Positions 45,584 to 64,000 of a DNA stretch of 64,000 nt are shown piece by piece. This stretch comes from Bacilli bacterium (GTDB lineage Bacteria; Bacillota_I; Bacilli_A; RF39; UBA660). The translations under genes were made by a program, and so were the position numbers. The DNA lies in NCBI GenBank assembly GCA_017410525.1, contig JAFQQQ010000002.1, positions 205,591-269,590 on the forward strand, written 5' to 3'. How positions within the stretch are numbered: the first letter of the stretch is position 1; each line of letters starts with the position of its first letter. The notes under the pieces are model-generated. The model was not told the DNA's origin. It was given only the letters and a program-made list of their open reading frames with translations, and did no database searches.

Positions 45584-45636
45584 ATTTTTTTGTATAAAAA
45601 GAAAAAAATGAATCAATATATAATTGGAGGGATTTT

Positions 45637-46074: not shown

Positions 46075-46126
46075 TAAGCAATGCTTATTATTTTTTGTTT
46101 GAATATAATTAAAAGGGAGTGATTTA

Positions 46127-47071: not shown

Positions 47072-47127
47072 AAAAGTTGTATAACTTTTTTTCTTTTTGC
47101 TCAATATAAAAAAGAAAGGAGATAGTT

Positions 47128-47352
47128 ATGCAAGAAACTTATAATGCAGTACCAAATATTGTTAGTTCAAAAGATTTAGATTATTTAAGTGATATGTTTA
47201 ATTGGAATTATGGTGCTTATAAAAGTAGTTTGAATGCTTCTAATTCAGTTATGGATGAAAATTTGAGTAATCTATTATTAAAAGCATCTAATATATTTCA
47301 TAGTAATATGAGTAAAGTATTAAATATGATTATGGGAGGTAACAATGAATAA
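47128..47352 (+). CDS. Small CotF-like/spore-coat-associated protein (putative)
   Basis: 74 aa, DLDYLSDMFNW helix. Paired with the following Coat-F-like ORF by a 4-nt overlap. Confidence 0.4.
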   Translation: MQETYNAVPNIVSSKDLDYLSDMFNWNYGAYKSSLNASNSVMDENLSNLLLKASNIFHSNMSKVLNMIMGGNNE

Positions 47353-47659
47353 TAGTATTAGTAATCCTAAAACAGAAGTACCTAAAGGAACAAGTATAAA
47401 TGATAAAGATTATATGAATTCATTACTTGGTACTTTAAAAGAAATGGTTAAAAATTATGCAGTTGCTTTAACAGAAGTAAGTAATGAAACTCTATATAAA
47501 GAATTTAAAAATATGTTTGATGAATATACAAATTTACAAAGAGAAGTTTATGAAGTAATGTTTAGAAAAGGTTGGTACACAATAGAGGTAGCAGAACAAC
47601 AAAAATTAGATAATAAACACCAAATACTAAATCAAGAGTTTATGGATTTACAAAGTTAA
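47345..47659 (+). CDS. Spore coat protein F (CotF) family protein
   Basis: D.DYMNSLL...K..V..YA.AL.E.SN..L...F..M..EYT.LQ.EVY..M...GWY matches the Coat-F domain pattern as I recall it. Terminator at 47660-47680. Confidence 0.55.
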   Translation: MNNSISNPKTEVPKGTSINDKDYMNSLLGTLKEMVKNYAVALTEVSNETLYKEFKNMFDEYTNLQREVYEVMFRKGWYTIEVAEQQKLDNKHQILNQEFMDLQS

Positions 47660-47694
47660 AGACTTATGTCTTTTTTTGTATACATAAAAATATT

Positions 47695-49170: not shown

Positions 49171-49233
49171 ATACAAAGTATTTATTTTTTTATTTTGGTG
49201 TAGTATAATTTATATAGAAAGTAGAGTGGTTTA

Positions 49234-50241
49234 ATGAAAATATTAGTTACAGGTGGTACAGGTTATATTGGTAGTCATACTTGTGTTGAATTATTAGATG
49301 CAGGATATGAAATAGTAGTTATTGATAATTTATCTAATTCCAAAATAGAAGTAGTAGATAAAATAAAAGAAATAACAGGTAAAGAATTTAAATTTTATGA
49401 AGGAGATTGCTGTGATAAAAATATTTTAACTAAAATATTTGAAGAAAACGAAATATCTGCAGTAATACATTTTGCAGGTTTTAAAGCAGTAGGAGAATCT
49501 GTATTAAAACCTTTAAAATATTATAGAAATAATTTGGATTCAACAATAACTTTATTAGAAGTAATGAGTGAATATAGTATTAAAAAAATCGCATTCTCAT
49601 CAAGTGCTACAGTATATGGCAAACCGGAAACATTACCAATCAAAGAAGATTTCCCACTATCAACAACTAATCCTTATGGAACAACTAAGTTGATGATAGA
49701 AGATATACTTAGAGATTTGTATGTATCAGATAATGAATGGAGTATAGCTATACTTAGATACTTTAATCCAATAGGGGCTCATAAGTCAGGACTTATAGGA
49801 GAAAATCCTAATGATATTCCAAATAATTTAATGCCATATATAGTTAAAGTAGCGACACATGAACTTGAGTGTCTTAGTGTATTTGGAAATGACTATGATA
49901 CAAAAGATGGCACAGGTGTAAGAGACTATATTCATGTAGTAGATCTTGCTAAAGGACATATTAAAGCGTTAGAAAAAGTATTAAAAGATAAAGGTGTAGA
50001 TGCATATAACTTAGGTACAGGTAATGGATATAGTGTTTTAGAAATCGTTAATACATTTATGGATGTAAATAAGATAGATGTTAACTATAAAATAACAGAT
50101 AGAAGACCTGGAGACATAGATGCCTGTTATGCAGATCCAACTTATGCTAAAGAGAAACTTAATTGGGAAGCAAATCTAGGAATTGAAGAAATGTGTGAAG
50201 ATGCATATAACTTTGTTAAAAAATTTAAAGAAGACAAATAG
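49234..50241 (+). CDS. galE: UDP-glucose 4-epimerase
   Basis: MKILVTGGTGYIGSHT, the YxxxK catalytic dyad region (PYGTTK) and 335 aa. Confidence 0.9.
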   Translation: MKILVTGGTGYIGSHTCVELLDAGYEIVVIDNLSNSKIEVVDKIKEITGKEFKFYEGDCCDKNILTKIFEENEISAVIHFAGFKAVGESVLKPLKYYRNNLDSTITLLEVMSEYSIKKIAFSSSATVYGKPETLPIKEDFPLSTTNPYGTTKLMIEDILRDLYVSDNEWSIAILRYFNPIGAHKSGLIGENPNDIPNNLMPYIVKVATHELECLSVFGNDYDTKDGTGVRDYIHVVDLAKGHIKALEKVLKDKGVDAYNLGTGNGYSVLEIVNTFMDVNKIDVNYKITDRRPGDIDACYADPTYAKEKLNWEANLGIEEMCEDAYNFVKKFKEDK

Positions 50242-50309
50242 TCTTCTTTTTGTTTAAAAAATATTTTCTTTTTAAATAAAGTGTGTTATAATTAATTAGT
50301 AATGAATCT

Positions 50310-50385
50310 GTCTCCTTAGCTCAGTTGGTAGAGCAACTGACTCTTAATCAGTGGGTCTAGGGTTCGAATCCCTAAGGGGACACCA
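50310..50385 (+). tRNA. tRNA-Lys (anticodon CUU)
   Basis: Acceptor GTCTCCT/AGGGGAC, anticodon stem ACTGA/TCAGT with loop CTCTTAA, T arm TAGGG-TTCGAAT-CCCTA, CCA. Terminator hairpin AAGATTCTTG..CAAGAATCTT follows at 50388-50427. Confidence 0.85.
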
Positions 50386-50457
50386 TTGGATATTAAAGAT
50401 TCTTGGTTTAGATTCAAGAATCTTTTTATTATAATTTTGGATTAAAGAGGGATGATT

Positions 50458-50808
50458 ATGAAAAAGAAAGGTTTTACATTAGTTGAATTACTTGCTGTTT
50501 TAGTTATTTTATCTATTTTATCAATTATTGCTACAGTTACGGTTAGTTCTATATTAAATGATTCTAAAAGTTCACTTTCTGATAGGCAAAAAAGAAATAT
50601 AGAAAATGCTGCAGAAACTTATTATTTAAAAGAAGGCATGAACTCTAATGATATGTGTATTAGTGTTGAAGAACTAATAGAAAAAGGATACATTGATAGT
50701 GTTACTGTAAAAGATCCACAGGACAGGAAAGAAATGACTGGATATGTAAAAATAACTTATGCTTCAAATCAATATTCATATAAATATCAAGAAATTTCTT
50801 GTGAATAA
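50458..50808 (+). CDS. Type IV prepilin/pseudopilin-like protein (N-terminal class III signal KKGFTLVELL)
   Basis: A G|FTLVE prepilin-peptidase site followed by a hydrophobic helix. 116 aa. Confidence 0.6.
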   Translation: MKKKGFTLVELLAVLVILSILSIIATVTVSSILNDSKSSLSDRQKRNIENAAETYYLKEGMNSNDMCISVEELIEKGYIDSVTVKDPQDRKEMTGYVKITYASNQYSYKYQEISCE

Positions 50809-50850
50809 AAATTAAAAATCTTCTCACAATATTAGTGGGAGGATTTTTTT

Positions 50851-51291
50851 ATGGAAAAAAAAGAATATAAAAAGATAGTAGATAAATATACTCCAGATGA
50901 ACCTAGATTTAGAAATGCATTGATTGCTTTTATAATAGGTGGATTTATGGGAGTGTTAGGTAATTTTTTAGTAGACTTTTATTCATCAACATTTGATTTA
51001 TCTAGTAAGGATGCTAGTGTATTTATGATTATTACTTTGGTTTTTTTAGGATGTTTTCTAACTTGTTTAGGATTTTTTGATAAATGGGTAGGGTTTGCTA
51101 AATGTGGACTTATTATACCTATAACAGGATTTGCACATGCTATGATGAGTGCAGCTTTAGAATATAGAAAAGAAGGTTTGGTAACGGGGATAGGTTCTAA
51201 TATGTTTAAACTTGCTGGTTCGGTAATTATATTTGGCGTTGTTTCAGCATACATATTTGGGCTTTTAAGATTACTTGTAATAGGAGGTTAA
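50851..51291 (+). CDS. spoVAC: Stage V sporulation protein AC
   Basis: MEKKEYKKIVDKYTPDEP.. followed by four TM helices; typical SpoVAC size and sequence. Confidence 0.85.
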   Translation: MEKKEYKKIVDKYTPDEPRFRNALIAFIIGGFMGVLGNFLVDFYSSTFDLSSKDASVFMIITLVFLGCFLTCLGFFDKWVGFAKCGLIIPITGFAHAMMSAALEYRKEGLVTGIGSNMFKLAGSVIIFGVVSAYIFGLLRLLVIGG

Positions 51292-51292
51292 T

Positions 51293-52282
51293 ATGACTTT
51301 TAAATATAATAATGTATATATAAATGAAACTAGTACAGTAGTTGGACCCTATGAAGCAAAAGGGCCTTTTTCTAAACTTTATGATAAGTGTTATAAAGAT
51401 TTTTATTTTAACGAAAAGACATGGGAACAAGCAGAAACTAAATTAATACAAGAAAGTGTAGAAATATTATTAAAAAAATCAAATAGGAAAAATAGTAAAA
51501 TTGATGTACATATTGGTGGTGACTTATTAAATCAAATAGTTGCGACTAATTATGCATCTGCTATAATAGGTATACCTTTAATAGGTATATATTCGGCGTG
51601 TGCAACGAGTAACTTAAGTTTATTACTTGCTAGTAATATGATAGAAGCAAATCAAATACAGAATGCTATAGTAACTGCATCCTCTCATAACAATAGTGCA
51701 GAAAAGCAATATAGAAACCCAGTAGAATATGGTGGGCCTAAAAAAGAATATTCAACATTTACAACTACAGGATGTGCTGCTTGTTATTTATCTAATGAAG
51801 AGTCAAAAATAAAAGTAGAGTCCGCAACCCTAGGCACAGTGGTTGATATGGGAATAACTGATGTATTTAATATGGGAGCAGTTATGGCTCCAGCAGCTGC
51901 TAAAGTAATAAATGACCATTTAAAAGATACTGGTAGAAAAATAGAATATTATGATTTAATACTTACTGGTGATTTAGGAGTAGTAGGTAAAATGATTTTA
52001 AAAGATTATATGAAACAGGAATATAATATTACTTTAAAAAATTATGATGATTCTGCTTGTATGATATTTGATATGGATACACAACCGGTTTATATGGGTG
52101 GTAGTGGAGTATCTTGTTTACCACTTGTTGCTTATACACACGTACTTAATAAAATGAAAAAAGGTGAGTTAAAGAAAGTTTTATTAGTTGCTACAGGTGC
52201 TTTAATGAATCCTACTATGTGTAATCAGCACTTATCTATACCTAGTATTGCTCATGCAATTAGTTTGGAGGCGGTTAAATGA
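51293..52282 (+). CDS. spoVAD: Stage V sporulation protein AD (thiolase-fold)
   Basis: About 330 aa with thiolase-like Cys region (IYSACATS); positioned between spoVAC and spoVAEb. Confidence 0.85.
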   Translation: MTFKYNNVYINETSTVVGPYEAKGPFSKLYDKCYKDFYFNEKTWEQAETKLIQESVEILLKKSNRKNSKIDVHIGGDLLNQIVATNYASAIIGIPLIGIYSACATSNLSLLLASNMIEANQIQNAIVTASSHNNSAEKQYRNPVEYGGPKKEYSTFTTTGCAACYLSNEESKIKVESATLGTVVDMGITDVFNMGAVMAPAAAKVINDHLKDTGRKIEYYDLILTGDLGVVGKMILKDYMKQEYNITLKNYDDSACMIFDMDTQPVYMGGSGVSCLPLVAYTHVLNKMKKGELKKVLLVATGALMNPTMCNQHLSIPSIAHAISLEAVK

Positions 52283-52629
52283 TACATTTTAATGCTTTTG
52301 TTTTTTGTGGTATAGTTTGTTTAATAGGACAAATAATACTTGACAATACTAAACTTACTCCTGGGCACATTACAACTATATTTGTAATAGTAGGAGCATT
52401 CTTAGATGTATTTAATATTTATGATAAATTTGTGCTTTGGGCAGGTGGTGGAGCTTTAGTACCAATAACTTCTTTCGGTCATTTACTTATACATGGTGCA
52501 ATGGATACTGTAAATAATTATGGTGTAATGGGATTATTTATGGGGATGTTTGATTTAACGTCTTCTGGAATAGTCGCTGCTATTATATTTTCGTTTGTTT
52601 TATCTTTAATTTTTCAACCTAGAGATTAA
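52279..52629 (+). CDS. spoVAEB: Stage V sporulation protein AEb
   Basis: 116-aa four-TM protein overlapping the spoVAD stop. Confidence 0.8.
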   Translation: MIHFNAFVFCGIVCLIGQIILDNTKLTPGHITTIFVIVGAFLDVFNIYDKFVLWAGGGALVPITSFGHLLIHGAMDTVNNYGVMGLFMGMFDLTSSGIVAAIIFSFVLSLIFQPRD

Positions 52630-52720
52630 ATTTGTGTAAACTTAAAAATAATTTTTCAGAACTTATTGAAATTATAAAAAATATATGTTATAATTTGGTC
52701 ATAAAATAGGAGGTATGTTT

Positions 52721-52861
52721 ATGGCTAAAAGGGGTAGACCTTCAAATAAAGTTATAGCGAAAAGAAAAGTTGCTAAATCTAAAAGTGAATTATCACTATT
52801 AGTAGGAATTTTCTTCGTAGTTTTACTTTTAATACTAGGTTATTTCTTTTTAATTAAATAG
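52721..52861 (+). CDS. Small (46-aa) basic membrane peptide MAKRGRPSNKVIAKRKVAKSKSELSLLVGIFFVVLLLILGYFFLIK
   Basis: RBS AGGAGG 7 nt upstream. Basic N-terminus plus a single TM helix. Not in the ORF track because it is under 60 aa. Confidence 0.35.
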   Translation: MAKRGRPSNKVIAKRKVAKSKSELSLLVGIFFVVLLLILGYFFLIK

Positions 52862-53006
52862 AGTTATCTCTATTTTTTTTATTTAATTTTCATAAAAGAA
52901 AAAAGTGTTAAGTTTTTGTGTAAAAATATTGTAAATTTTACCAAAAATACTTGTTTTCGCTTTTTTTATTATGTATAATAAATTTGTATGTTAAAAGGAG
53001 GATTTT

Positions 53007-55640
53007 ATGACAAAATATGTTTATGCCTTTAAAGAAGGTAACAAAGACATGCGAAATTTGTTAGGTGGTAAAGGTGCTAACCTTGCTGAAATGACAGGTA
53101 TTGGACTTCCTGTTCCACAAGGATTTACTGTTACTACTGAAGCATGTATTAAGTATTATGATGATGGAGAAGATATATCTCAAGAAATCAAAGATGAAAT
53201 TTTAAGTCACTTAGAAGGACTTGAAAAAGAATCTGGAAAAAAATTTGGAGATATGGAAAATCCGTTATTAGTATCTGTTAGAAGTGGTGCTAGAGCATCT
53301 ATGCCAGGTATGATGGATACAGTTTTAAACTTAGGTTTGAATGATGAAGTTGCAAAAGGATTTGCTAAAGCTACAAACAATGCAAGATTTGTATACGATA
53401 GTTATAGAAGATTTATTCAAATGTTTGCTGATGTAGTTATGGGATTCCCAAAAAGTTCATTTGAAAGAAAATTTGATGCAATTAAAGAAGAAAAAAACGT
53501 TAAATTTGATACTGAATTAAGTGCTGAAGATTTAATGGAAGTTGTTGAAATTTACAAAAATGAATACAAAAATCATGCTGGTGTAGATTTTCCACAAGAT
53601 CCAAAAGATCAATTATTAGAAGCTGTAAAAGCTGTATTTAGAAGTTGGAATAATGATAGAGCAATCACTTATCGTAGATTAAATGATATTCCATCTAGTT
53701 GGGGAACTGCTGTTAACGTTCAAGAAATGGTTTATGGTAACCGTGGAGATGATTGTGGTACAGGTGTTGCATTTACAAGAAATCCAGCAACTGGAGAAAA
53801 GAAATTATACGGTGAATATTTAATGAATGCTCAAGGAGAAGATGTTGTTGCTGGTATTCGTACACCTCAAACAATTGATACTCTAAAAGAAGTTATGCCT
53901 GATTGCTATGATCAATTTGTAAAAATTTGTAATATTCTTGAAAATCATTACAAAGATATGCAAGATATGGAATTTACTATTGAAAACGGAAAACTTTTCA
54001 TGTTACAAACTCGTAATGGAAAAAGAACTGCTCAAGCTGCTTTAAAAATAGCTGTTGATTTAGTAAATGAAGGAATGATTTCTAAAGAAGAAGCTATTCT
54101 AAAAGTTGAACCAAAACAATTAGATCAATTATTACATCCAAACTTTGATGCTGCAAGCTTAAAGGCCGCTAAAGTAGTTGCAAAAGGTTTAGCTGCTTCT
54201 CCAGGAGCTGCAACTGGTAAAATTTACTTTACTGCAGAAGATGTTATGGAAGCTGCTAAACAAGGTGAAAAAGATATATTATTAGTTAGACTTGAAACTA
54301 GTCCAGAAGATATCGAAGGTATGAATATCGCTCACGGTATTTTAACTATCCGTGGTGGTATGACTAGCCATGCTGCAGTTGTTGCTCGTGGTATGGGTAC
54401 TTGCTGTGTATCTGGATGTGGTGAACTTGTAATAGATGAAGAAGCTAAAACTGTTAAAACAGTTGATGGTAAAGTATACAAAGAAGGAGACTGGATGAGC
54501 TTAGATGGTTCAACTGGTAATGTATACGGTGAACAAGTTAAAACTGTTGAACCAGAAATAAGCGGAGACTTTGAAACATTTATGGGATGGGCTGATAGTG
54601 TTAGAAGACTTAAAGTTAGAACTAATGCTGATTCACCAAGAGATGCAATTCAAGCTCGTAAATTTGGTGCTGAAGGTATAGGTCTATGCCGTACAGAACA
54701 CATGTTCTTTGAAGAAGAAAGAATTTTCAACTTCCGTAGAATGATTGCTGCTGATTCAGTAGAAATGAGAGAAGAAGCTTTAGAAAAAATCTTACCATAT
54801 CAAAGAAAAGATTTTGAAGGATTATTTGAAGCTATGGAAGGAGATCCTGTTGTAATTCGTTACTTAGATCCACCTTTACATGAATTCTTACCTCATACAG
54901 ATGCTGAAATTAAAGCTTTAGCTGAAAGTTTAGGAATGAGTTTTGAAGCATTAAAAAATCGTGTTGAATCATTAAAAGAATTCAATCCAATGATGGGACA
55001 TAGAGGATGTAGATTAGCTGTTACATATCCAGAAATAGCTAAAATGCAAACAAGAGCCGTTATTGAAGCTGCAATCAATGTAAATAAAAAAGGTATGAAC
55101 ATAATTCCTGAAATAATGATCCCACTTGTTGGAGATATTAATGAATTAAAATATGTTAAAAAAGTAGTTTGTGAAACTGCAGATGCTATAATTGCTGAAG
55201 CTGGGGTTGAACTTACTTACCATGTTGGAACAATGATAGAAATTCCAAGAGCTGCTGTTACAGCAGATGAAATAGCTAAAGAAGCTGAATTCTTCTCATT
55301 CGGAACTAATGACTTAACTCAAATGACATATGGTTTCTCAAGAGATGATGCTGCTAAATTCTTAAATGAATACTATACAAAAGGAATTTTTGAAAATGAT
55401 CCATTCGCTAAGTTAGATCAAAACGGTGTAGGTAAACTTGTTGAAATGGCTGCTAAACTTGGTAAATCAACTCGTCCTGATATCCATATGGGTATTTGTG
55501 GAGAACACGGTGGAGAACCAAGCAGTGTTGAATTCTGTCATAAGGTAGGACTTGACTATGTATCTTGTAGCCCATTCAGAGTACCTCTAGCTAGACTTGC
55601 TGCTGCACAAGCCTCTATCAAAGAAGGGATGAATAAGTAA
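53007..55640 (+). CDS. ppdK: Pyruvate, phosphate dikinase
   Basis: 877 aa, N-terminal ATP-grasp region, phospho-His domain (GGMTSHAAVVARGMG) and the PEP-utilising C-domain. Terminator AAACGAAAATCGTTT at about 55646-55661. Confidence 0.9.
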   Translation: MTKYVYAFKEGNKDMRNLLGGKGANLAEMTGIGLPVPQGFTVTTEACIKYYDDGEDISQEIKDEILSHLEGLEKESGKKFGDMENPLLVSVRSGARASMPGMMDTVLNLGLNDEVAKGFAKATNNARFVYDSYRRFIQMFADVVMGFPKSSFERKFDAIKEEKNVKFDTELSAEDLMEVVEIYKNEYKNHAGVDFPQDPKDQLLEAVKAVFRSWNNDRAITYRRLNDIPSSWGTAVNVQEMVYGNRGDDCGTGVAFTRNPATGEKKLYGEYLMNAQGEDVVAGIRTPQTIDTLKEVMPDCYDQFVKICNILENHYKDMQDMEFTIENGKLFMLQTRNGKRTAQAALKIAVDLVNEGMISKEEAILKVEPKQLDQLLHPNFDAASLKAAKVVAKGLAASPGAATGKIYFTAEDVMEAAKQGEKDILLVRLETSPEDIEGMNIAHGILTIRGGMTSHAAVVARGMGTCCVSGCGELVIDEEAKTVKTVDGKVYKEGDWMSLDGSTGNVYGEQVKTVEPEISGDFETFMGWADSVRRLKVRTNADSPRDAIQARKFGAEGIGLCRTEHMFFEEERIFNFRRMIAADSVEMREEALEKILPYQRKDFEGLFEAMEGDPVVIRYLDPPLHEFLPHTDAEIKALAESLGMSFEALKNRVESLKEFNPMMGHRGCRLAVTYPEIAKMQTRAVIEAAINVNKKGMNIIPEIMIPLVGDINELKYVKKVVCETADAIIAEAGVELTYHVGTMIEIPRAAVTADEIAKEAEFFSFGTNDLTQMTYGFSRDDAAKFLNEYYTKGIFENDPFAKLDQNGVGKLVEMAAKLGKSTRPDIHMGICGEHGGEPSSVEFCHKVGLDYVSCSPFRVPLARLAAAQASIKEGMNK

Positions 55641-55839
55641 TTTAAAACGAAAATCGTTTTAATACCAATAAATATAAGGAATTAATATTGTAAAGATGTA
55701 TAATTCCTTGTAATTACAAATGTTCTTATAGGACAAATAAAAGTAAAAATATACAAAATATTAAAGACTAAGATGACTTATAGTTGCAAATCTTAGTCTT
55801 TTTTGTGCTTTGTGCGACAAGAATTTGGAGGTATTAAAA

Positions 55840-56301
55840 ATGCGATTATTGTACACTAAACCAGAATTAAAAGATTTATCCCAAGGATCAAGAATAGCGT
55901 TTGTCAGACAATTTAGATTGATGACACAAGATGAAGTATCGGATAAATTAGGATTAACAGGTGAATGTAAAAGAAGAACAATGACAAGATATGAGAAGGG
56001 AGAAAGAAATCCAAAAGATGATAGAACTTATGAATTATCTAAAATATTAAAAGTTAATTACAATGCAATAAAAAAATATGATTTCAAAGATCAATCAGAT
56101 ATACTTTATACTTTAATGTGGTTAGAAGAGTTGCTTCCTCGTTACCAAATAGATTTATCGAGAATACCAAGCATTAATGATGATAATATCATTAAATTTA
56201 AAGAATTCATCAATGAATGGGAAGAAATGAGGACAAAAAGATTTAAAAGAGAAATTTCTTACGAGCAATATGTTGAATGGAAGTTAAATTTAGAGGTGTA
56301 G
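55840..56301 (+). CDS. HTH-domain DNA-binding protein (element-encoded)
   Basis: RIAFVRQFRLMTQDEVSDKLGLTGECKRRTMTRYEKGER is an HTH_XRE-like pattern. Start chosen at M (MRLLYTKP). Confidence 0.5.
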   Translation: MRLLYTKPELKDLSQGSRIAFVRQFRLMTQDEVSDKLGLTGECKRRTMTRYEKGERNPKDDRTYELSKILKVNYNAIKKYDFKDQSDILYTLMWLEELLPRYQIDLSRIPSINDDNIIKFKEFINEWEEMRTKRFKREISYEQYVEWKLNLEV

Positions 56302-56305
56302 TAGT

Positions 56306-57166
56306 ATGTTAGAAAAAATAGATTTGTTAAAAATTGATGGTTTTAAAAATCATCCTTATAAAGTTAATGATGATGAATCTTTAAAAGAACTTGCAAGTAG
56401 TATTAAAGAAAATGGATTGCTGAATCCTTTAATAGTAAGATTAAAGTCAAATGGTAGATATGAACTAATATCAGGACATAGAAGAAAAAAAGCAATGGAG
56501 TCAATAGGAATATCAGAAGCGGAAGTATATGTAAAAAAATTGTCTGACGAAGAAGCTACGATAGAAATGGTTGATTCTAATATGTACAGAGAAAAAGTTT
56601 TACCATCAGAAAAAGCGTTTGCATATAAAATGAAATTAGAAGCATTAAAGCATCAAGGTAAATCTTTGTCCCCTAAGGGAACTAAATCTCATACGGTAGA
56701 TGAAATAGATGATACAAAAACTCAAATTTATAGATATGTAAGATTGACTTATTTAATCCCAGAATTATTACAATTAGTTGATGATACTGTTTTAAAGGAC
56801 AAAAGAGCAGTTTTAACGATGGGTTTAAAACCAGCGGTAGAATTATCATATTTAACAAAAGAAGAGCAAAAATTGGTATATATGGGGATTACATACGAGG
56901 ATTTAACTCCAAGTCATGCTCAAACAATAGAAATAAGAAAATTAAGTAAATCAAAAAAATTGGATTTTAATAGTTTAGAAGATATTTTATGTCAAAAAAA
57001 AGGAAATCAAAACGATCAAATATCATTTAATAAAGATAAAATAGAATCGGTTTTACCAACAGAATTATTGAAAAGAGATAAAAGATATATTGAACGATAT
57101 ATAATAAAAGCAATTATAGAGTATAAAAAAATGAAAATTGTTGAAGAAGATGAATTGGATTTTTAA
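56306..57166 (+). CDS. ParB/Sulfiredoxin-domain (ParB-like nuclease/partition) protein
   Basis: LNPLIVRLKSNGRYELISGHRRKKAM ParB N-domain box (GxRR). Confidence 0.7.
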   Translation: MLEKIDLLKIDGFKNHPYKVNDDESLKELASSIKENGLLNPLIVRLKSNGRYELISGHRRKKAMESIGISEAEVYVKKLSDEEATIEMVDSNMYREKVLPSEKAFAYKMKLEALKHQGKSLSPKGTKSHTVDEIDDTKTQIYRYVRLTYLIPELLQLVDDTVLKDKRAVLTMGLKPAVELSYLTKEEQKLVYMGITYEDLTPSHAQTIEIRKLSKSKKLDFNSLEDILCQKKGNQNDQISFNKDKIESVLPTELLKRDKRYIERYIIKAIIEYKKMKIVEEDELDF

Positions 57167-57190
57167 ATAAAGTAAAGAAAGGGTGATAAT

Positions 57191-58015
57191 ATGGTTTTTA
57201 AGGTGGAAAAAAATAAGAATTATACAGTAATGAGTAATTACCATTTGAGAGATAAAAACTTATCTTTGAAAGCAAAAGGCTTATTATCATTTATGCTTAG
57301 TTTACCAGATGATTGGGATTACTCATTAAATGGTTTATGTTCTATATGTAAAGAATCTGAAGGAGCAATAAAAAGTACATTAAAAGAGTTAAAAGATAAT
57401 GGATATTTGGTTATAGAAAAAGTACGAGGGGAAAAGGGATATTTTGAATATAACTATATTATTTATGAACATCCATATACATTAGAAAAGGAGAAAAACA
57501 ATCCAGAGGGTAAAAATCCACCTGTGGATTATCCAATGGTGGAAAATCATACCCAAATAAATACTAATGAACAAAGTATTAAAGAACAAATAGATAGAAT
57601 AGATAAAACCATAAATGAAGATGAGGAAAAAATTTCTTCATCTTTTTCTTTAGAAGAACATCACGCTATAACTAAAGATTTAGTTGAAAGAGAATATTTA
57701 GCAGAAGATGATGTAGAACTATACAAGTATGATAAATTTTTTAAGGAAATTTTAAAAAAACAAAAATTTACTGATGTAATTTCTATAACTCACTATATTA
57801 TTTCTAGTGTTAAAAGTCGGCATTTTATAGATGAGTTTGATAATAAGATAGAGAATAAATTTGGATATTTAAAAACATCAATTGAAAATAATATTGAAAT
57901 GTTTAAAAGACGTGAAATAGAATGGGATGATGAATTAGGATGGTTTAGGGAAGTGGATAACGATGATAAAGAATTAGATTCTTTTTATGACGATTTTGAT
58001 TATGAAATAACATAA
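57191..58015 (+). CDS. Replication-initiator/replisome-organiser-like protein (N-terminal winged helix, DnaD/RepA_N-like)
   Basis: The YTVMSNYHLRDKNLSLKAKGLLSFMLSLPDDWDYSLNGL N-terminal pattern is characteristic of Firmicute phage/plasmid RepA_N proteins, recalled from memory. Confidence 0.55.
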   Translation: MVFKVEKNKNYTVMSNYHLRDKNLSLKAKGLLSFMLSLPDDWDYSLNGLCSICKESEGAIKSTLKELKDNGYLVIEKVRGEKGYFEYNYIIYEHPYTLEKEKNNPEGKNPPVDYPMVENHTQINTNEQSIKEQIDRIDKTINEDEEKISSSFSLEEHHAITKDLVEREYLAEDDVELYKYDKFFKEILKKQKFTDVISITHYIISSVKSRHFIDEFDNKIENKFGYLKTSIENNIEMFKRREIEWDDELGWFREVDNDDKELDSFYDDFDYEIT

Positions 58016-58046
58016 AAAAAGACTAAAATCAGTCTTTAGGAATATG

Positions 58047-58445
58047 TTACTTCTCAATCAATTTTTCGGCAAAACTATGTAGCATTTCAAGGTTTATATC
58101 GCTTAAATTTTTTGCGATTTCAAATATGCTATATAAATTTGAATTTTTTCTGATAATGATGGCATCAACATTTTTTAAGTCATCTTCAGAAAATGTACTT
58201 CCAGTCTGGTTAAATATAGCTTCTTTTAATTGAAAAGAATCTCTAAAACCTAAACCTTTACTAATTTTTTTTAATGTTATACTGCTTATGTTACCGCTAT
58301 GCTTTTTAGACTCTAAATCATTAATTACCATTCTTGAAATTTCGCATTTATCTGCAAATTCTCTAGCACTCATCGTTGGATGAAATGATTTACGATAATT
58401 ATTAATGTAAGAGCCAAGTGCATCTACAAATGCTTTGTCTTCCAT
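58047..58445 (-). CDS. XRE-family HTH transcriptional regulator (repressor-like), divergently transcribed
   Basis: HTH_XRE core MSAREFADKCEISRMVINDLESKKH. Only gene on the minus strand in this block. Confidence 0.75.
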   Translation of the reverse strand: MEDKAFVDALGSYINNYRKSFHPTMSAREFADKCEISRMVINDLESKKHSGNISSITLKKISKGLGFRDSFQLKEAIFNQTGSTFSEDDLKNVDAIIIRKNSNLYSIFEIAKNLSDINLEMLHSFAEKLIEK

Positions 58446-58881
58446 ATCCTATCGCCTTTCTTTTGTTCTTTTACTACATTACCATTTTACACTTTTTTTG
58501 AATTTTTGTCCACATAACGCTATGAAATTCATTTTTAAAAAATTAAATTATGAAAATGGACATTTTTAATATTATTTGTTATGATAATAATGTAGTAAAT
58601 AGTCTTTAAAAAAATATGGGAGGATAGAAATGTTTAAATCAAAACTTGTGATGCTTTCATTTCTGACCAAAGAAAGGAGGAGCAAGATTGCAAGAGCAAG
58701 AAGGTTCTAATGTTGTTAAAAGCATCAAGATTGAAGTGATAAGTGGGGAAAAAAAAGGTGTAAACTTATTAACGCAGTTTAGTGAGGTAGAAACAATTAG
58801 AATATTAAAGCAGTGTCTTATATCGTTAGAAAGGGAGGCATCACAAAACCAGTAGTACCGATTAAGGAAGGAAAATGATAT

Positions 58882-59193
58882 ATGACTAAAGAAAGTAATG
58901 AAGTAGTATCAGAAGTAAATGCAGTAATTAGTAGTATTAGAAGTAAGGTTCAACAAGAAGAAAAAATTACAGTAGATGAAATTGATAATTTATCTACTAC
59001 TGTTAATCAACTAATCACTGATTATAGAACAGTATTAAATGACTATCTTGTAATGAACTCTTTAGCAGTAAAACATGATAAGTTTTTAGAAGTAATTGGT
59101 ATTATAGAATTTGCTTCTGCAAATGATGTTAGAATTTTAGATCAAACAATTAAATCCTTAGAAAAGGTTGTTAAAACAATAAAGCAGAGGTAA
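58882..59193 (+). CDS. Hypothetical 103-aa helical protein
   Basis: RBS AAGGAAGGAAAA. No motif recognised. Confidence 0.4.
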   Translation: MTKESNEVVSEVNAVISSIRSKVQQEEKITVDEIDNLSTTVNQLITDYRTVLNDYLVMNSLAVKHDKFLEVIGIIEFASANDVRILDQTIKSLEKVVKTIKQR

Positions 59194-59552
59194 ATAAAAT
59201 ATACTGTGTGGAAAAAAATTCTACACAGTTTTATTTTTGGATATTGACATTTATAAAAAAATAATGTATCCTTTTATTGTAAGTGGCAGTTCAAACTGAC
59301 ACAATAAAAGAAGGAGGGGATTGAAAAATTTGTAATAGGAGAGAGGTATAGAGTTTTTAATGAAGTATCCGAAAATCATGGAAACTATCTCACAATTATC
59401 AACATAAATAAAGACTTAATATATTATTTATTTGATGGTAGCGATCAGGTTCAATGTTTTTCAAGTAGTAGTGAATTTGCAGTTGACCTTATTAAGTTGG
59501 TCTAATTTTTTTAAAATAACTGTCAGTTTGAACTGACACGAAAGGAACTACG

Positions 59553-59813
59553 ATGAAAAAAATTAAGAAAGAAAGATCAGTACCAAAATGGGTTTTACGA
59601 AATCTACGATTGTATGGGAATTGTTGTTGTGGATACGATTTAATAAAAAAATATGGTGAAAAGAAATTATTAGAAAAATTAGTTAAATTTGGATTTGAAT
59701 GTAGTTTAAGAGTTGTACCAGATCCAGATGCAAGAACAAGAAGAAAAATGAAATATCCACCATCAGCTTACTATATTTTAGAAGTTGATAAGGTACTGAT
59801 TACTAACAAATAA
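59553..59813 (+). CDS. Hypothetical 86-aa protein (CCC motif); positional candidate antitoxin of downstream MazF
   Basis: Its stop abuts the TTG start of the toxin gene. No SpoVT/AbrB or RHH signature is recognisable. Confidence 0.35.
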   Translation: MKKIKKERSVPKWVLRNLRLYGNCCCGYDLIKKYGEKKLLEKLVKFGFECSLRVVPDPDARTRRKMKYPPSAYYILEVDKVLITNK

Positions 59814-60194
59814 TTGTTTTTATCAGTAAAGAAAGGTGAAGTTTATTTAATCGATTTGAAGGATACATATTCAAATGTCCAATGTGGGAAAAGACCTTGT
59901 TTAGTCATTCAAAACGATTATGGTAATGAATATTCACCGACAACAATAGTAGTTCCCATTACAACAAAAATTAAGAAGACTTATATGCCTGTTCATGTAG
60001 TTATTGAAAAGGGAAGTTATTCTAATAAGGATCGAGAAATGGTTTTATGTGAATGTATCTTAACAGTATCAAAAGATCAAATAATTAATCATTTAAGAAC
60101 TTTTGATGAAGATACGATGCAGAAAATTGATAAGGCTTTAGAAGTATCATTAGGAATTGGCGTGAAAGGGAGGAATCAAAAATTAAAAAGTTAA
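59814..60194 (+). CDS. MazF/PemK-family endoribonuclease toxin
   Basis: GEVYLIDL...GKRPCLVIQND...PTTIVVPITT follows the PemK/MazF pattern. Probable TTG start. Confidence 0.7.
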   Translation: MFLSVKKGEVYLIDLKDTYSNVQCGKRPCLVIQNDYGNEYSPTTIVVPITTKIKKTYMPVHVVIEKGSYSNKDREMVLCECILTVSKDQIINHLRTFDEDTMQKIDKALEVSLGIGVKGRNQKLKS

Positions 60195-60265
60195 AAGAGA
60201 CGTATAATGATATTTTTAGTAAAGGTATTGAAAATTATTGGAAGTCTGAAGGTTGTAATAGTAGG

Positions 60266-60832
60266 ATGCAAAAATACTTTAAATTTGCAAACTTACTAGA
60301 TAGTATTAATGTAGTTTTAAAATATATAATGATTATTTGTCTTAATATTATTGCAACAATGACAATTTTTAAACTATCTTCAGGAATTTATTTGACAGAA
60401 ATGGTTAAAGAAACAACAACTTTAACTGTAATGGATATTATTTTTCAACAAGGAGGCTTTATAGTTATTGGTTGTTTATATTTTGTTTTAGGGTTAAGAT
60501 ACGGAAAACGAAATAAAGACAGTTTTGGTAAGATAATGTATAAAGTTTTATATGGTATGCCAATGTATTATTTAATATATCTAAATATGTGTTTGATGGA
60601 TGGTTTAACAGGAATAATGATATTCTTAATTCTTTATTTAATTATTGTTAATATAAACTTTTTAATAAGTAAAAGAATAAAAGAGTTATATAATGTTGCA
60701 ACAGGTAATATTGGAACAGAAGAATATGAAAAAGAATTAGAAGAAGTAGATGTAGTATTTACAAAACAAGAAGTTGAAAATAAGGATAATAAAAAAGGAA
60801 GAGGAGATAAAAAATATGCAAGGAAGCGTTAA
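60266..60832 (+). CDS. Hypothetical integral membrane protein (4 TM) with acidic/basic C-tail
   Basis: Hydrophobicity pattern only. Confidence 0.4.
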
Positions 60833-61037
60833 ATGGTTTAGTGATAAATTAGGATATGGATTTATTGTTTGTGAAGATTTAGATGAGGAAGTATTTGTTC
60901 ATTTTAGCGAAATACAAATGGATGGATATAAGTCTTTAAAAGAAGGAGATATTGTAAGTTTTGATTATGACACAGAAGTTGGAAAAGCTAAAAATGTCAA
61001 TGTTATCAAAAATGAAAAGTTAGAAACTTCTAAGTAG
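60816..61037 (+). CDS. Cold-shock protein (CspA family)
   Basis: [18 protein letters not shown]...VFVHFSEI carries RNP1/RNP2 motifs. Start placed at MQGS after GGAGA. Confidence 0.85.
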
Positions 61038-61507
61038 TGAATTTTATTGGTGCAGTAGTGCATTATTCCGTTGACTGTGTAGATGAATCTAAAACAGCAG
61101 AAAACGGAAGAGAAATTTGTAGTCAGTATAGACCACTTGTAGAAAAAAGAATTAAAAGATTATTAGCAACACCAATGAACTCTGCAAGTATTGTACTTTT
61201 TACATCTGGAAATAGAAGTAAAAATTCTTTTGAAGAAAAACTAATACAAAGAGTTGCTTGGAATGATGATCAGATAACTAATTTTATGAATAACATTTTG
61301 TTATTAGAACAATATGATAAAATGGCAGGTTTATATTTGAAACTTAAATATATTTATGATAAAACTGATAAACAAATTGCAAAAAAAATGAAAGTAACAG
61401 ATAGAACTTTAAGAACTTATAAAACAAGGGCGTATTTTCAAATTGCAGTGTGGTCTAATAAAGTTGAATATATTTATAACAAAACTTTTCATTTTAATAT
61501 TGATTGA
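61037..61507 (+). CDS. Sigma-70 region-4-like / ArpU-family transcriptional regulator
   Basis: C-terminal HTH KQIAKKMKVTDRTLRTYKTRAY, typical of ArpU/sigma-like late regulators of Firmicute mobile elements. Confidence 0.5.
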   Translation: MNFIGAVVHYSVDCVDESKTAENGREICSQYRPLVEKRIKRLLATPMNSASIVLFTSGNRSKNSFEEKLIQRVAWNDDQITNFMNNILLLEQYDKMAGLYLKLKYIYDKTDKQIAKKMKVTDRTLRTYKTRAYFQIAVWSNKVEYIYNKTFHFNID

Positions 61508-61563
61508 TATATTTGATGTGGAAATATCCACATCCTGCTACATACAAAGGAGTTGAATATTTT

Positions 61564-62712
61564 ATGAAAAAAAGAAATATTTTAATTATTAGTGCATTAA
61601 TAGTAGTATTAGTATCTATTGGTATATATTTATTTATACAACATACAAATAAAATAACTTTAAAGGAATCTAATTTTATTTTTGAACTTGGGGATAAAGT
61701 TCCTTTTGAAGTTGAATATTATTTAAAAGATAAGGATAAAGATAAAATATCAAATTCAAAAATAAGATTTGAAAATGATGCAATGTTTGATACTTCAAAC
61801 AATGAAATTAGAACAATAGATTCAAAGTTTTTAGATGTTGGAAAATATAAAATGTATATTGAGTATAAGGATACTAAGTATCACTTTAATATTAAAGTGA
61901 AAGATACAACAGCACCTAATTTTATTGATTTTATGGATGAAATTATATTAGAACAAAATGCTGTAAATGTAGATTTGTTAAAATATTATGAAGCATCTGA
62001 TTTAAGTAGTTTAACGATAAGCATTGAAAGTGATTATGATATTGAAAAAACTGGTGAATATAAAGCAATAATTAAATCTAAAGATGTTTATGATAATATA
62101 GTTACAAAAGATGCAACAATTAAAGTAATTTCTTATGATGATTTAAAAAATACAGAAGTAACGAAATGCTTAGATGGTACAATATTTAAAAGTGAAAAAA
62201 GAATTGAATCAGAAAAGAAAAAAATAGAAACTAATCAATCTAGTTCTAATAATAATACAACCCCTAAAATAGAAATAGTTGATAATAACAACAATAGTAA
62301 TAATTCAAAGAATGAATCAAATAACAATAGTTCTAGTTCATCATCTAATAATACTCCAACTATTGTTAATGCTACATATAGAACAGATATTTCAAATGAA
62401 ATAGTAAATAAGATAAATGAATATCGTAAAAATAATGGTCAAACTGTGTTACCTGTAACTTCTGAAGCACAAGCTGAAGCTGACAGGAGAGCAAAGGAAA
62501 TTGTATCAAATCCTACTCATGAAGGTTCTTCTTATGGTTTTGGGGAAAATATAGGTGGAGGAGGAATTGGTACTGATTTCTTCACATTATGGAAAGAAAG
62601 TTTTTCCCACAATAACGCAATGTTAAGAGAGCAAAATACAGCAATAGCAGTAAGTATATATCAATATAATAATCAATGGTATGCAGTTGCTGTTTTTAGA
62701 ATGAATTATTAA
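61564..62712 (+). CDS. Secreted/membrane-anchored protein with Asn/Ser-rich linker and C-terminal CAP (SCP/PR1, YkwD-like) domain
   Basis: N-terminal TM/signal sequence, a low-complexity N/S linker and a C-terminal HEGSSYGFGENIGGG...WYAVAVF CAP-domain signature. Start at MKKRNIL. Confidence 0.6.
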   Translation: MKKRNILIISALIVVLVSIGIYLFIQHTNKITLKESNFIFELGDKVPFEVEYYLKDKDKDKISNSKIRFENDAMFDTSNNEIRTIDSKFLDVGKYKMYIEYKDTKYHFNIKVKDTTAPNFIDFMDEIILEQNAVNVDLLKYYEASDLSSLTISIESDYDIEKTGEYKAIIKSKDVYDNIVTKDATIKVISYDDLKNTEVTKCLDGTIFKSEKRIESEKKKIETNQSSSNNNTTPKIEIVDNNNNSNNSKNESNNNSSSSSSNNTPTIVNATYRTDISNEIVNKINEYRKNNGQTVLPVTSEAQAEADRRAKEIVSNPTHEGSSYGFGENIGGGGIGTDFFTLWKESFSHNNAMLREQNTAIAVSIYQYNNQWYAVAVFRMNY

Positions 62713-62748
62713 AATTTCTCAATATGGGAAATTTTTTTATGCAAGAAA

Positions 62749-62768
62749 TTATGTGGAATTCCACATAA
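62749..62768. repeat. Perfect 20-bp palindrome TTATGTGGAA|TTCCACATAA, candidate recombinase core site
   Basis: Seen directly in the sequence. Further copies of TTATGT(G/A)GAAC are at 62775-85 and 62792-802, and an inverted copy at 62848-58. Confidence 0.5.
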
Positions 62769-62865
62769 TATTTTTTATGTAGAACTTTTAGTTATGTGGA
62801 ACTTTTATAAAAAACATCTTGTAATTAAGGCGTTTCTATTATAAAAAGTTCCACATAATTTTTTT

Positions 62866-63867
62866 CTATTTCATATTATTTTTCAACCAACTATCTAAAT
62901 TGTCTTTTTTAGTATTACTATATTTACTTTTAGTGTTTATCGTTTCTGAATTTCTAAGAATTTCTTGTCTTTGCTTTTTCGAATCTGGAGTTGCATATAT
63001 CTCTGTTGATGTTATTGAACTATGACCTAGAAATTCTTTAACATATAAAAGCGGAGTTCCATTATTATACAAATGTGTTGCTTTGGTATGTCTAAAACTA
63101 TGAGGATGATAATTTCCATTGAATTTATCTGGATATATTAAATTTAATTTTAAAACTATTTTTTTAATCATTTTATTAATACTATATCTTGAATATTTTT
63201 TCTTATAATTAGAATAAAATAAATAATCATCTCCATAGTTAATATAAAATTCTTTTAAATATTTATTGATTAACTTTACTAATTCTTGACTGATAGGTAC
63301 AATTCTAGTTTTATTACCTTTGCCATATAAAGTAATACTTGCATTATCAGATAAATTTAAGTCATCTAATTTAATATTTATTAATTCAGTTACTCTTGCC
63401 CCTGTTTCATAAAGTACACATATCATCGTTAATTTTTTTAAATCTTTGATACTGTTTAAATAATTTATCATTGTTTTTATTTCATTTTCTGTAAAATATG
63501 ATATCATTTTATTAGGAACCTTTTTATTCTTAATACTAAGAATTTGAGAACAAGATCCAAATAAATCAGGTTCGTTTATTTGGACATACTTGTAAAATGA
63601 TTTTATACAAGCAAGTCTTTGGTTCCTAGTTTGTATTGAAACAGTTCTATCTGTTTCTAACCAATCTAGAAATTGGATTATTACTTCCTTAGTAATTGAT
63701 TCAATTTCTATTTTATTTGGTTTAATATTTTTTTCTTTATTCATAAATTCTAACAACAAATAAAATGTAGTTGAATATGATGATTTAGTGTTCATTGAAT
63801 AATTACATTCACCAATTAAATAACTTGTAAGAAATTCTTGAACTAATTTACTAAATCTATTAGTCAC
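62866..63867 (-). CDS. Tyrosine-type site-specific recombinase/integrase
   Basis: The C-terminal catalytic region is HPHSFRHTKATHLYNNGTPLLYVKEFLGHSSITSTEIY (R..HxxR..Y). GTG start after GAGGGGGTGA. Confidence 0.85.
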   Translation of the reverse strand: MTNRFSKLVQEFLTSYLIGECNYSMNTKSSYSTTFYLLLEFMNKEKNIKPNKIEIESITKEVIIQFLDWLETDRTVSIQTRNQRLACIKSFYKYVQINEPDLFGSCSQILSIKNKKVPNKMISYFTENEIKTMINYLNSIKDLKKLTMICVLYETGARVTELINIKLDDLNLSDNASITLYGKGNKTRIVPISQELVKLINKYLKEFYINYGDDYLFYSNYKKKYSRYSINKMIKKIVLKLNLIYPDKFNGNYHPHSFRHTKATHLYNNGTPLLYVKEFLGHSSITSTEIYATPDSKKQRQEILRNSETINTKSKYSNTKKDNLDSWLKNNMK

Positions 63868-64000
63868 CTAAATCACCCCCTCATATAAACTTTTAGAAAA
63901 AGTATCATTAGCATCGATAATTTTATTTTTATTATAATCAGTAAAATGAAGATAGTATTCTGTTTCATGAATACTTTTATGTCCCATATATTTATAAAGA
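63868..64000 (-). CDS. Second tyrosine recombinase, C-terminal end only (gene continues beyond window)
   Basis: The reverse frame ends ..LYKYMGHKSIHETEYYLHF..., matching the LGH..(x)..T..Y C-terminal motif. Its stop overlaps the start region of the downstream integrase. Confidence 0.45.
   Translation of the reverse strand, partial: LYKYMGHKSIHETEYYLHFTDYNKNKIIDANDTFSKSLYEGVI

Follow-up and report, generated by a model that had tools for sequence, protein, structure and literature searches.

Recombinase-in-trio (RIT) elements (Van Houdt 2009/2012, Ricker 2013) carry three adjacent tyrosine recombinase genes in the order A-B-C with the R-H-R-Y catalytic residues, measure about 3.2 kb, and have terminal inverted repeats with a palindrome at one end. 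They are widespread, the replicon pHG1 being reported as rich in them (PMC3414803), and are known for "sequence variation at the ends", an "overlapping palindromic sequence" and nesting inside other mobile elements (Van Houdt 2012, PMC3414803). Their target choice, empty sites and movement have never been established (PMC10214605, PMC5737581, PMC3414803): PMC10214605 gives "not tested" for each of the three, and PMC5737581 describes the mechanism as "yet to be deduced" (see also PMC3414803). A second kind of element, found in Clostridia and other Firmicutes, comprises integrative and conjugative or integrative and mobilizable elements (ICE/IME) related to CTn and Tn1549, which encode a TndX/TnpX-type large serine recombinase (LSR) at one end beside an att site. 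Here we analyse a stretch of 64,000 nt (the window) from a Bacilli bacterium (RF39, UBA660; GCA_017410525.1, JAFQQQ010000002.1 positions 205,591-269,590), in which both kinds appear to meet. It very probably contains two nested mobile elements, namely an LSR-encoding island at the 3′ end of the host gene ppdK and a RIT transposed into that island.

The target of the island is ppdK (53007-55640, forward strand), whose product contains the PPDK_N, PEP-utilizers and PEP-utilizers_C domains. An earlier reading of the letters alone (the sequence-only reading) had noticed a switch to mobile-element genes downstream of the ppdK terminator. The switch is real, but its boundary falls within ppdK, at 55605-55612, where comparison of sites identified the attL core, the 8-bp sequence GCACAAGC common to attB, attL and attR of the island and located 28 nt upstream of the stop codon. 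Sequence variation between hosts with diverged ppdK genes ceases exactly at this core. The segment that follows (55613-55670, forward strand), encoding a replacement tail S-I-K-E-G-M-N-K-stop and a terminator-like hairpin, is identical in eight contigs despite differing upstream ppdK DNA; the last eight codons and the terminator are element DNA. The element-bearing PpdK (877 aa) has the C-terminus ...AAAQASIKEGMNK (...AQASIKEGMNK), while the closest element-free PpdK, otherwise about 100% identical, has 875 aa and ends in ...AAAQAVVKENQ/N. As judged from these alignments, ppdK is kept intact, the island supplying its own eight-codon tail, stop codon and terminator. The G+C content is low throughout (22-34%) and does not mark the boundary.

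An element-free allele of the same species was found on a 92.8-kb contig (L020; labels of this form denote loci or contigs) that is 99.92% identical to window positions 43007-55645. There, ppdK ends in its native tail, the one swapped for the element tail in the island-bearing allele, and is followed by host genes for a 238-aa protein, a 262-aa protein, a hydrolase, Smr, PriA and others. A host Xer-like tyrosine recombinase of 296 aa, unrelated to the trio described below, lies about 9 kb downstream of attB near tk/yabP/yqfD (L020 21802-22628; L021 18834-19724; L022 19039-19929). In two island-carrying samples, the gene for the 238-aa protein is preceded by genes for a 122-aa protein, a 222-aa protein, a class B sortase and a 586-aa LSR, and by an attR with the displaced native ppdK tail. 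The three sites, attB CTTGCTGCTGCACAAGCTGTAGTTAAAG (L020), attL CTTGCTGCTGCACAAGCCTCTATCAAAG (window) and attR GAGATTGTAGCACAAGCTGTAGTTAAAG (L023), are reciprocal around GCACAAGC; aligned, they read CTTGCTGCTG-CACAAGC-TGTAGTT for attB, CTTGCTGCTG-CACAAGC-CTCTATC for attL and GAGATTGTAG-CACAAGC-TGTAGTT for attR. The reconstructed attP (46 bp) holds CATCCCAAATGAGATTGTAGCACAAGCCTCTATCAAAGAAGGGATG and displays an outer dyad symmetry, CATCCC...GGGATG, with CA at its centre, where crossover would be expected.

The LSR matches Resolvase (PF00239, 94.9 bits) and Recombinase (PF07508, 94.4 bits), scores far below the CcrB and XisF equivalog cutoffs, and its gene ends about 180 bp before the attR core. 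The locus therefore combines the features that define an LSR-type integrative element: an LSR of more than 450 aa adjoining an att site, reciprocal attL and attR with a short core, and an empty allele. In the proposed mechanism, this recombinase, whose gene lies at the extreme right of the island, some 10 kb or more past the window, would integrate the island by attP x attB recombination at GCACAAGC, and integration would displace the native ppdK tail to attR beside the LSR gene. The sequence-only reading had taken the block for an integrative mobile element with a right end past the window, which is borne out by the three att sites and by an LSR-attR end outside the window. A search from the host gene for the 238-aa protein located this right arm on other contigs.

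Comparison with related genomes showed that ppdK is not always followed by the element, as the L020 allele demonstrates, and that near-identical islands sit in different hosts. Between hosts, identity is 69-78% over the final 400-1200 nt of ppdK and 98.3-99.4% over the first 7 kb of the island, with the switch at the same nucleotide. Vertical descent as the cause of the near-identical copies was rejected, since it is contradicted by the divergence of ppdK between hosts. By this comparison, the island has evidently spread recently between gut "Bacilli bacterium" lineages.

The part of the island between attL and the end of scaffold_14 measures at least 15.1 kb, to which the LSR end adds at least 4.1 kb (at least 19 kb in all). 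A conserved block of about 10 kb is followed by variable cargo comprising type I restriction-modification (R-M) genes, DUF4230 genes, an ABC/FtsX transporter and helix-turn-helix (HTH) genes, and this cargo is itself about 98% identical between hosts with different ppdK. A ppdK-adjacent block ending at a 75-aa open reading frame (ORF) was considered as the full extent and rejected, given that the ABC module beyond it is also about 98% identical across hosts with differing ppdK. The island backbone consists of the HTH, ParB_N, DUF6017/DnaD-like initiator, ArpU-like, MazF, class B sortase and LSR genes, to which swappable cargo is added.

The position directly after the 75-aa ORF is a cargo hot spot, occupied by hsdRMS, by two DUF4230 genes with hsdRMS, by a 216-aa gene with the ABC/FtsX transporter, or by HTH genes. 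The ABC module is flanked by terminator-like direct repeats of about 41 bp, AGCAGATCTATAAAAAGATTTGCTTTT (L006 14576-14618; L007 11224-11264 and 14775-14815; L016, reverse complement, 11815-11855 and 15366-15406), which suggests a cassette-like exchange.

Relatives of the island were recognized by LSRs that are 53-75% identical. They show the order ppdK-HTH19-...-LSR on single contigs, as well as the permutation LSR-attP-HTH19-ParB. Their attP forms have the same core followed by a mimic of the ppdK tail with a stop codon, and one such tail, AAIKSHQK-stop, is present both as attP (L049) and in integrated form (L060-L063). A relative with 62% LSR identity carries, in its right arm, genes for a MobA/VirD2-type relaxase and ArdC upstream of the sortase-LSR pair. 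The closest solved structure to the LSR is 3g13, a "putative conjugative transposon recombinase".

The permuted order LSR, attP-like site, HTH19, ParB was also seen on linear contigs (L108 7816-14267, L109 5837-12288, L030, L037 and L044), two of which (L108 and L109) continue with Abi_2, an HTH gene and then host-like genes (Smr, Ldh). These arrangements represent either circular forms or the tandem accretion of a second, LSR-less element at a ppdK-derived site. Weak "RitB/RitC" matches upstream of ppdK in some relatives were examined as possible RITs and rejected; they are single genes at 26-35% identity, probably host recombinases.

With the Clostridia and Firmicutes LSR elements the island shares the LSR at one end beside an att site, the site-specific entry at the 3′ end of a conserved gene, the short identical core and the dyad-symmetric attP, together with DUF6017-type initiator-like, ParB-like and small sigma/ArpU-like genes, a sortase and, in one relative, a relaxase and ArdC. 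It differs from them in that the present copy has so far revealed neither a type IV secretion system (T4SS) nor a relaxase, and in its LSR, which is 32-39% identical to plasmid-borne relatives. From these likenesses, an LSR-type ICE/IME-like element is a plausible assignment, its transfer functions being putative. Several points weigh against the proposed island. The left arm and the LSR end never occur on one contig, as the assemblies break inside hsdS and at the RIT; we linked the two arms because their att sites are reciprocal, because they co-occur in samples and because relatives have both on a single contig. Neither relaxase, origin of transfer (oriT) nor T4SS was found in the readable ~19 kb of the island, whose middle is unassembled, and the ICE/IME label is drawn from the relatives. 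A recombination directionality factor was not identified for the island either. Among other searches, a direct repeat of the ppdK 3′ end, the expected attR, was not found in the first set of island contigs, because these stop short of the right end. A scan of JGI metagenomes with the LSR returned relatives of at most 65% identity and no copy of the present island, and a non-exhaustive literature search found no report of ppdK as an integration target.

The sequence-only reading had called the element "IME- or phage-satellite-like". The first half of this description is plausible from the relatives, and the second has little in its favour. A degraded prophage, or a satellite resembling the phage-inducible chromosomal islands, with an LSR as integrase would account for the ArpU-like regulator and the DnaD-like initiator, both of which have phage homologues (PHROG; Clostridium phage DnaD/replication proteins), for the switch-like arrangement of a divergent XRE gene, and for the LSR itself, LSRs being common phage integrases. 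The phage matches are, however, limited to DnaD/replication proteins, and the closest annotated relatives of the replication-initiator-like (Rep-like) protein head a conjugation module: its residues 2-179 are 44% identical to a DUF6017 protein at the head of the Tn1549/CTn-type module of pMG2200. No terminase, portal, capsid, tail or lysis gene was seen in about 19 kb of the island or in 21 kb of a relative, and no island protein had a PHROG or Pfam match to packaging-redirection, capsid-remodelling or terS genes. The relaxase and ArdC of the relative and the match of the LSR to 3g13 also argue against a phage origin, as does an empty viral-contig scan with RitC, in which the island's own genes were not included. 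We consider the phage explanation quite improbable.

The second element lies at the right edge of the window. Exact-protein look-up of a 333-aa recombinase encoded there retrieved three contigs (L001, L002 and L003) that are 100% identical in their overlap and extend the window by 4.5 kb; composite coordinates refer to the window so extended. They reveal three co-oriented tyrosine recombinase genes encoding 327, 316 and 333 aa, the first two overlapping by 11 nt and the stop codon of the second being directly followed by the start of the third. The third gene, ritC (62866-63867, reverse strand), encodes a protein with PF00589 (133.8 bits), SAM-like N-terminal domains and the R...HxxR...H...Y residues. 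Of ritB, the window includes only the 3′ end (63868-64000, reverse strand; translation ...GHKSIHETEYYLHF...). The remainder of that gene, together with ritA and the second inverted repeat, is found past the window edge, and the RIT ends at composite position 65926.

The trio is absent, with a precise empty junction, from 11 other island copies of 97-99.9% identity (10 metagenome contigs and L016, a locus in a metagenome-assembled genome). On a 311-kb scaffold with an identical ppdK and a 99.95%-identical block, the CAP gene is followed by the next island genes and no recombinases. Filled and empty alleles occur together in one sample. The empty site reads ...TTTATGC-AATAAA-AAAATCAATCC... (AATAAA at L004 19737-19742), and the insertion measures 3178 bp (composite 62749-65926). 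On this evidence, the RIT appears to have entered the island recently and in one lineage only.

The sequence-only reading had counted two tandem recombinases, had the element end with them and likened them to Tn554 machinery; none of this holds, the three proteins belonging to a nested element with its own inverted repeats, past which the island goes on. That the recombinases might be the integration and excision module of the ppdK-adjacent island, in the manner of an IME or Tn554, was suggested by their place at the right edge of the window and by the fact that they are genuine, catalytically complete tyrosine recombinases. Against this stand the 11 copies that lack them with a clean junction, and the continuation of the island beyond them with genes for 157, 180 and 237 aa, an HTH gene and cargo. 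Moreover, the att sites flank the LSR and not the trio, which has 93-bp inverted repeats of its own and is also found by itself in unrelated settings. A role as island module is very hard to credit.

To assign the trio to a class, its proteins were compared by BLASTP with the trios of pHG1, Bacillus sp. S3 and C. estertheticum. Positional orthology was consistent: A-A pairs scored 100-140, B-B pairs 92-104 and C-C pairs 159-215 bits, and cross-position pairs at most 66. RitC scored 203, 215 and 159 bits against the RitC proteins of pHG1, Bacillus sp. S3 and C. estertheticum, respectively, as the best reciprocal similarity, versus at most 66 bits against A or B proteins. It also matches the third gene of annotated overlapping plasmid recombinase trios, including that of Cupriavidus necator pHG1. 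Alignment showed the catalytic R...HxxR...H/W...Y residues to be kept in RitA, RitB and RitC. RitA proteins have been described with two core-binding (CB) domains and RitC with an extra C-terminal helix (PMC8138268); the C-terminal extension of the present RitC aligns with those of the reference proteins. The same RIT, at 94% identity or more, was found in at least five other genomic contexts, which is comparative evidence of movement as a unit. By gene order, orthology and ends, the trio is assigned to ritA-ritB-ritC of an autonomous 3.18-kb RIT element. Two differences should be set beside this assignment: RitA (327 aa) lacks about 90 N-terminal residues relative to canonical RitA proteins, including those of pHG1 and Bacillus (410-420 aa), which counts against it, and the inverted repeats measure 93 bp versus 34 bp for the archetype (PMC10214605). 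Viral contigs gave no matches, whether RitC, the RIT palindrome or the RIT end served as the query.

Tandem tyrosine recombinases and a 6-bp junction footprint are also features of the Tn554 family (PMC10214605), and the best NCBIfam matches of the trio are Xer models, so that a TnpA/TnpB/TnpC transposon or housekeeping XerC/XerD proteins had to be weighed. The scores of 79-167 bits against the Xer models compare with equivalog cutoffs of 330-335, strains that are nearly identical differ in whether they have the trio, and the host has its own Xer-like gene; these are not XerC/XerD orthologues, an outcome that the sequence-only reading had named as counting against it. Regarding Tn554, its pattern (TnpA of ~360 aa, TnpB of ~630 aa, TnpC, no long inverted repeats) is not that of the present element, in which three recombinases of similar size, each the positional orthologue of RitA, RitB or RitC, are enclosed by long inverted repeats, with no further ORF in the 3178 bp and hence no room for tnpC. 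Both identities are scarcely conceivable. The RIT nevertheless resembles Tn554 and the SE elements in having several tyrosine recombinases and probably no true target duplication (PMC10214605), and differs from them in lacking a large TnpB/IntB-type recombinase and a TnpC/Srap-like protein, in its long inverted repeats and in its RitA/B/C orthologues. In Tn554 and SE elements, the 6 bp of the target stay at the recombinase-proximal junction, and a 6-bp "fingerprint" of the donor is found at the distal one (PMC10214605). This polarity is paralleled here: the RitA-proximal junction has AATAAA, identical to attB of the RIT, and the RitC-distal one has AAGAAA.

The ends of the RIT were then resolved against the empty site. 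At the RitC-distal junction, AAGAAA (62743-62748) is the imperfect partner of AATAAA (composite 65927-65932). The outer tip of the RIT is a 20-bp perfect palindrome, TTATGTGGAATTCCACATAA (62749-62768), made of two head-to-head sub-repeats, inserted with the RIT and absent from the empty site. A 6-bp internal spacer, TATTTT (62769-62774), which differs between sister copies, separates it from the RitC-distal terminal inverted repeat of about 93 bp (62775-62865), a 98.9% inverted match to the RitA-proximal end beyond the window (L001 2546-2637), with TTATGTRGAA sub-repeats at 62775, 62792 and 62849. Each end has two outer direct copies of TTATGTRGAA 17 nt apart and an inner inverted copy about 55-57 nt away. 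In the window, this motif has five matches, all within 62749-62858, versus 1.17 expected (none of 100 shuffles reached five), and all eight copies in 68.5 kb fall in the RIT ends. The layout with three sub-repeats is common to the RITs of Bacillus sp. S3, C. estertheticum and Chondrinema, and is simplified in pHG1.

Sub-repeats of about 10 bp beginning with TTATG, TTATC or TTAATG were observed at RIT ends in Firmicutes, Betaproteobacteria (pHG1, TTATGTAGAG) and Bacteroidota (Chondrinema, TTATGTAAA), at L112 1129/1185/4556/4611 and L133 1109/1126/1182/4506/4550/4562, and also in L113, L114 and L130. They may represent a putative recombinase-binding element conserved across phyla.

Sister copies with a RitA at least 90% identical, found in other contexts, allowed target sites and end geometry to be compared. 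In five different RitA-proximal flanks, each made up of a hairpin and a T-run behind it, the element begins 6-9 nt past the stem (folding z-scores -1.9 to -6.5). The present RIT sits in the T-tract behind a terminator, between two convergent terminators. The two insertions in which both flanks are interpretable lie between convergent terminators, at T7ATT | (GC)ATA7. The palindrome is RitC-distal here, in L115, in L116 and in Ruminococcus albus, and RitA-proximal in L119, L122 and the distantly related C. estertheticum RIT; in every case 6 bp separate the palindrome from the terminal repeat. In RitA-to-RitC orientation, the internal spacer reads AAAATA here and ATAAAA in L115 and L116, although the copies are 94% identical.

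We infer a circular intermediate from this geometry; a circle with a double core is proposed as the simplest account because the palindrome is found at alternate ends with a constant 6-bp spacing. The RIT would excise as a circle in which the terminal repeat of the right inverted repeat (IR-R), 6 bp (O1), the palindrome, 6 bp (O2) and the terminal repeat of the left inverted repeat (IR-L) follow one another, giving the predicted junction ...AAGTTCTACATAA-AAAATA-TTATGTGGAATTCCACATAA-TTTNTT-TTATGTAGAACTTTTAGTTATGTGGAAC... and two dyad-related 10-6-10 core sites. Either 6-bp overlap would then serve to integrate the circle into a T-rich tract directly after a terminator hairpin. Use of O2 would place the palindrome on the side of RitC, and use of O1 on that of RitA. 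As with Tn554 and the SE elements, the RitC-distal junction would retain a 6-mer from the donor. We offer this combination, namely a circle with two 10-6-10 cores, T-tract targeting behind intrinsic terminators and an imprint of 6 bp of the previous site carried to the RitC-distal junction, as a tentative model, possible but short of probable.

Tyrosine recombinases exchange strands across an overlap of 6-8 bp and make no staggered-cut duplications. An alternative account would nonetheless be that the RIT makes an ordinary 6-bp target-site duplication (AATAAA) of which one copy mutated later, the palindrome being a fixed part of one end and no double-core circle being formed. It is in keeping with TTTATT on both sides in L115 and GAGATT on both sides in the R. 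albus copies, and with the failure to detect a circle for other RITs (PMC5737581). A post-duplication substitution is unlikely because the filled and empty flanks differ at 0.05-0.3% of positions, for which the chance of a later substitution in the 12 duplicated bases was estimated at about 1-4%. A fixed palindrome is also at odds with its presence at the RitA or the RitC end depending on the copy, always 6 bp from the terminal repeat, and with a spacer that differs between 94%-identical copies. We regard target-site duplication as rather doubtful.

The circle model itself has to contend with several observations. The circular junction sequence was not observed in any dataset examined, and a mobilome study of other RITs found no circles (PMC5737581). 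A matched empty site is available for one insertion only, L115 has identical 6-mers at both ends, as a target-site duplication would give, and the RIT of Bacillus sp. S3 has no extra palindrome. Finally, L115 (1961/5111) and L116 (415/3565) have the same RitC-distal junction and flank and different RitA-proximal flanks (TTTATT versus TTATAT); L116 may have arisen by a rearrangement that the RIT mediated between two copies, or its assembly may be chimeric across the 3-kb repeat.

The two RITs of R. albus 7, on pRUMAL02 (L130 1133-4747) and pRUMAL01 (L131 1134-4747), are 98.5% identical and occupy the same position in their flanks. By eye, from excerpts, these flanks appear only distantly similar and look like a split DDE/IS-like gene. 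Both junctions have GAGATT, whose reverse complement, AATCTC, forms the internal spacer. The shared position points to a strong target specificity.

Regarding the genes of the island left arm, the HTH, ParB_N, XRE, PemK/MazF, cold-shock, CAP and recombinase genes were found where the sequence-only reading had put them; its RepA_N/DnaD-like initiator stands as HTH_36/DnaD-like and falls as RepA_N, and its ArpU/sigma-like regulator is present with a weakly supported assignment. The first island gene (55840-56301, forward strand; alternative TTG start at 55810) encodes an HTH_19/XRE-type regulator (Pfam HTH_19, 31 bits), homologues of which directly follow ppdK or the LSR-attP junction in 19 related loci. 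It is followed by a gene for a ParB N-terminal-domain protein (56306-57166, forward strand; PF02195 61.9 bits, phrog_4715 E=5e-38, TIGR00180 86.5 bits) and by that for the Rep-like protein (57191-58015, forward strand), with HTH_36 (PF13730, 36.8 bits), a DnaD-like/DUF6017-like N-terminus and matches to PHROG replication-initiation families with E-values as low as 3e-24; RepA_N gave no match to it, Pfam HTH_36 and the PHROG DnaD-like families matching instead. The XRE-family HTH gene is divergent (58047-58445, reverse strand; PF01381 25.1 bits), and one island copy has about 100 bp of extra or replaced sequence between it and the convergent Rep-like gene (L010 2463-2564, about window 58016-58070).

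A 103-aa ORF (58882-59193, forward strand), without a Pfam or PHROG family match, was called as a gene in all island copies. The 360-nt non-coding gap before the next ORF contains a 19-nt inverted repeat (59283-59301 and 59521-59539, 95% complementary) around 219 nt, each arm of which holds the near-palindrome CAGTTYRAACTG. It could be an operator pair or an invertible promoter switch; an inverted allele of the segment 59283-59539 was not seen among the other island copies. The next ORF, of 86 aa (59553-59813, forward strand), ends immediately before the mazF start and has no Pfam, PHROG or NCBIfam match; by its position it may be the MazF antitoxin. The PemK/MazF-family toxin gene (59814-60194, forward strand; PF02452 91.5 bits, phrog_1936 E=3e-25) is followed by genes for a predicted membrane protein of 188 aa (60266-60832, forward strand; hydrophobic stretches read by eye in the translation, no Pfam or PHROG match), a cold-shock-domain protein of 73 aa as called (60816-61037, forward strand; PF00313 81.5 bits) and the ArpU/sigma-region-4-like regulator (61037-61507, forward strand), whose matches are weak (phrog_248 E=4e-10; TIGR01637 27.8 bits, below its cutoff of 43.1; Sigma70_r4_2 18 bits).

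The last gene before the RIT (61564-62712, forward strand) encodes a CAP-domain protein of 382 aa (PF00188, 31.3 bits versus a cutoff of 21.1) that has a hydrophobic stretch near its N-terminus and a linker rich in Asn and Ser; exact-protein look-up returned no record for it. In other copies this gene is split around the low-complexity linker into 142+88 aa and 261+88 aa (L012 6446-7594; L014 6663-7756), and in one copy the ParB gene is split into 67+199 aa (L012 1183-2044); the CAP and ParB genes are decaying in some island lineages. A scan of 55000-64000 with Rfam found no RNA family at E 0.1 or better.

Both elements belong to known kinds; what this case adds is a natural RIT insertion resolved to the base pair, together with its end geometry. 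In the RIT literature consulted, which did not cover Ricker 2013, we found no description of a matched empty site, of a target preference for the T-tracts of terminators or of a palindrome at alternate ends. On the side of the island, ppdK turns out to be a conserved point of entry for LSR elements of one family, which move toxin-antitoxin, R-M and transporter cargo among uncultured gut Firmicutes, and the island repairs the gene it interrupts. On the side of the RIT, a natural before-and-after pair, several independent insertion sites and a conserved end geometry make its movement testable. If true, the double-core circle would be the first concrete, testable model of how a recombinase trio moves, and it could explain why RIT ends vary between copies.

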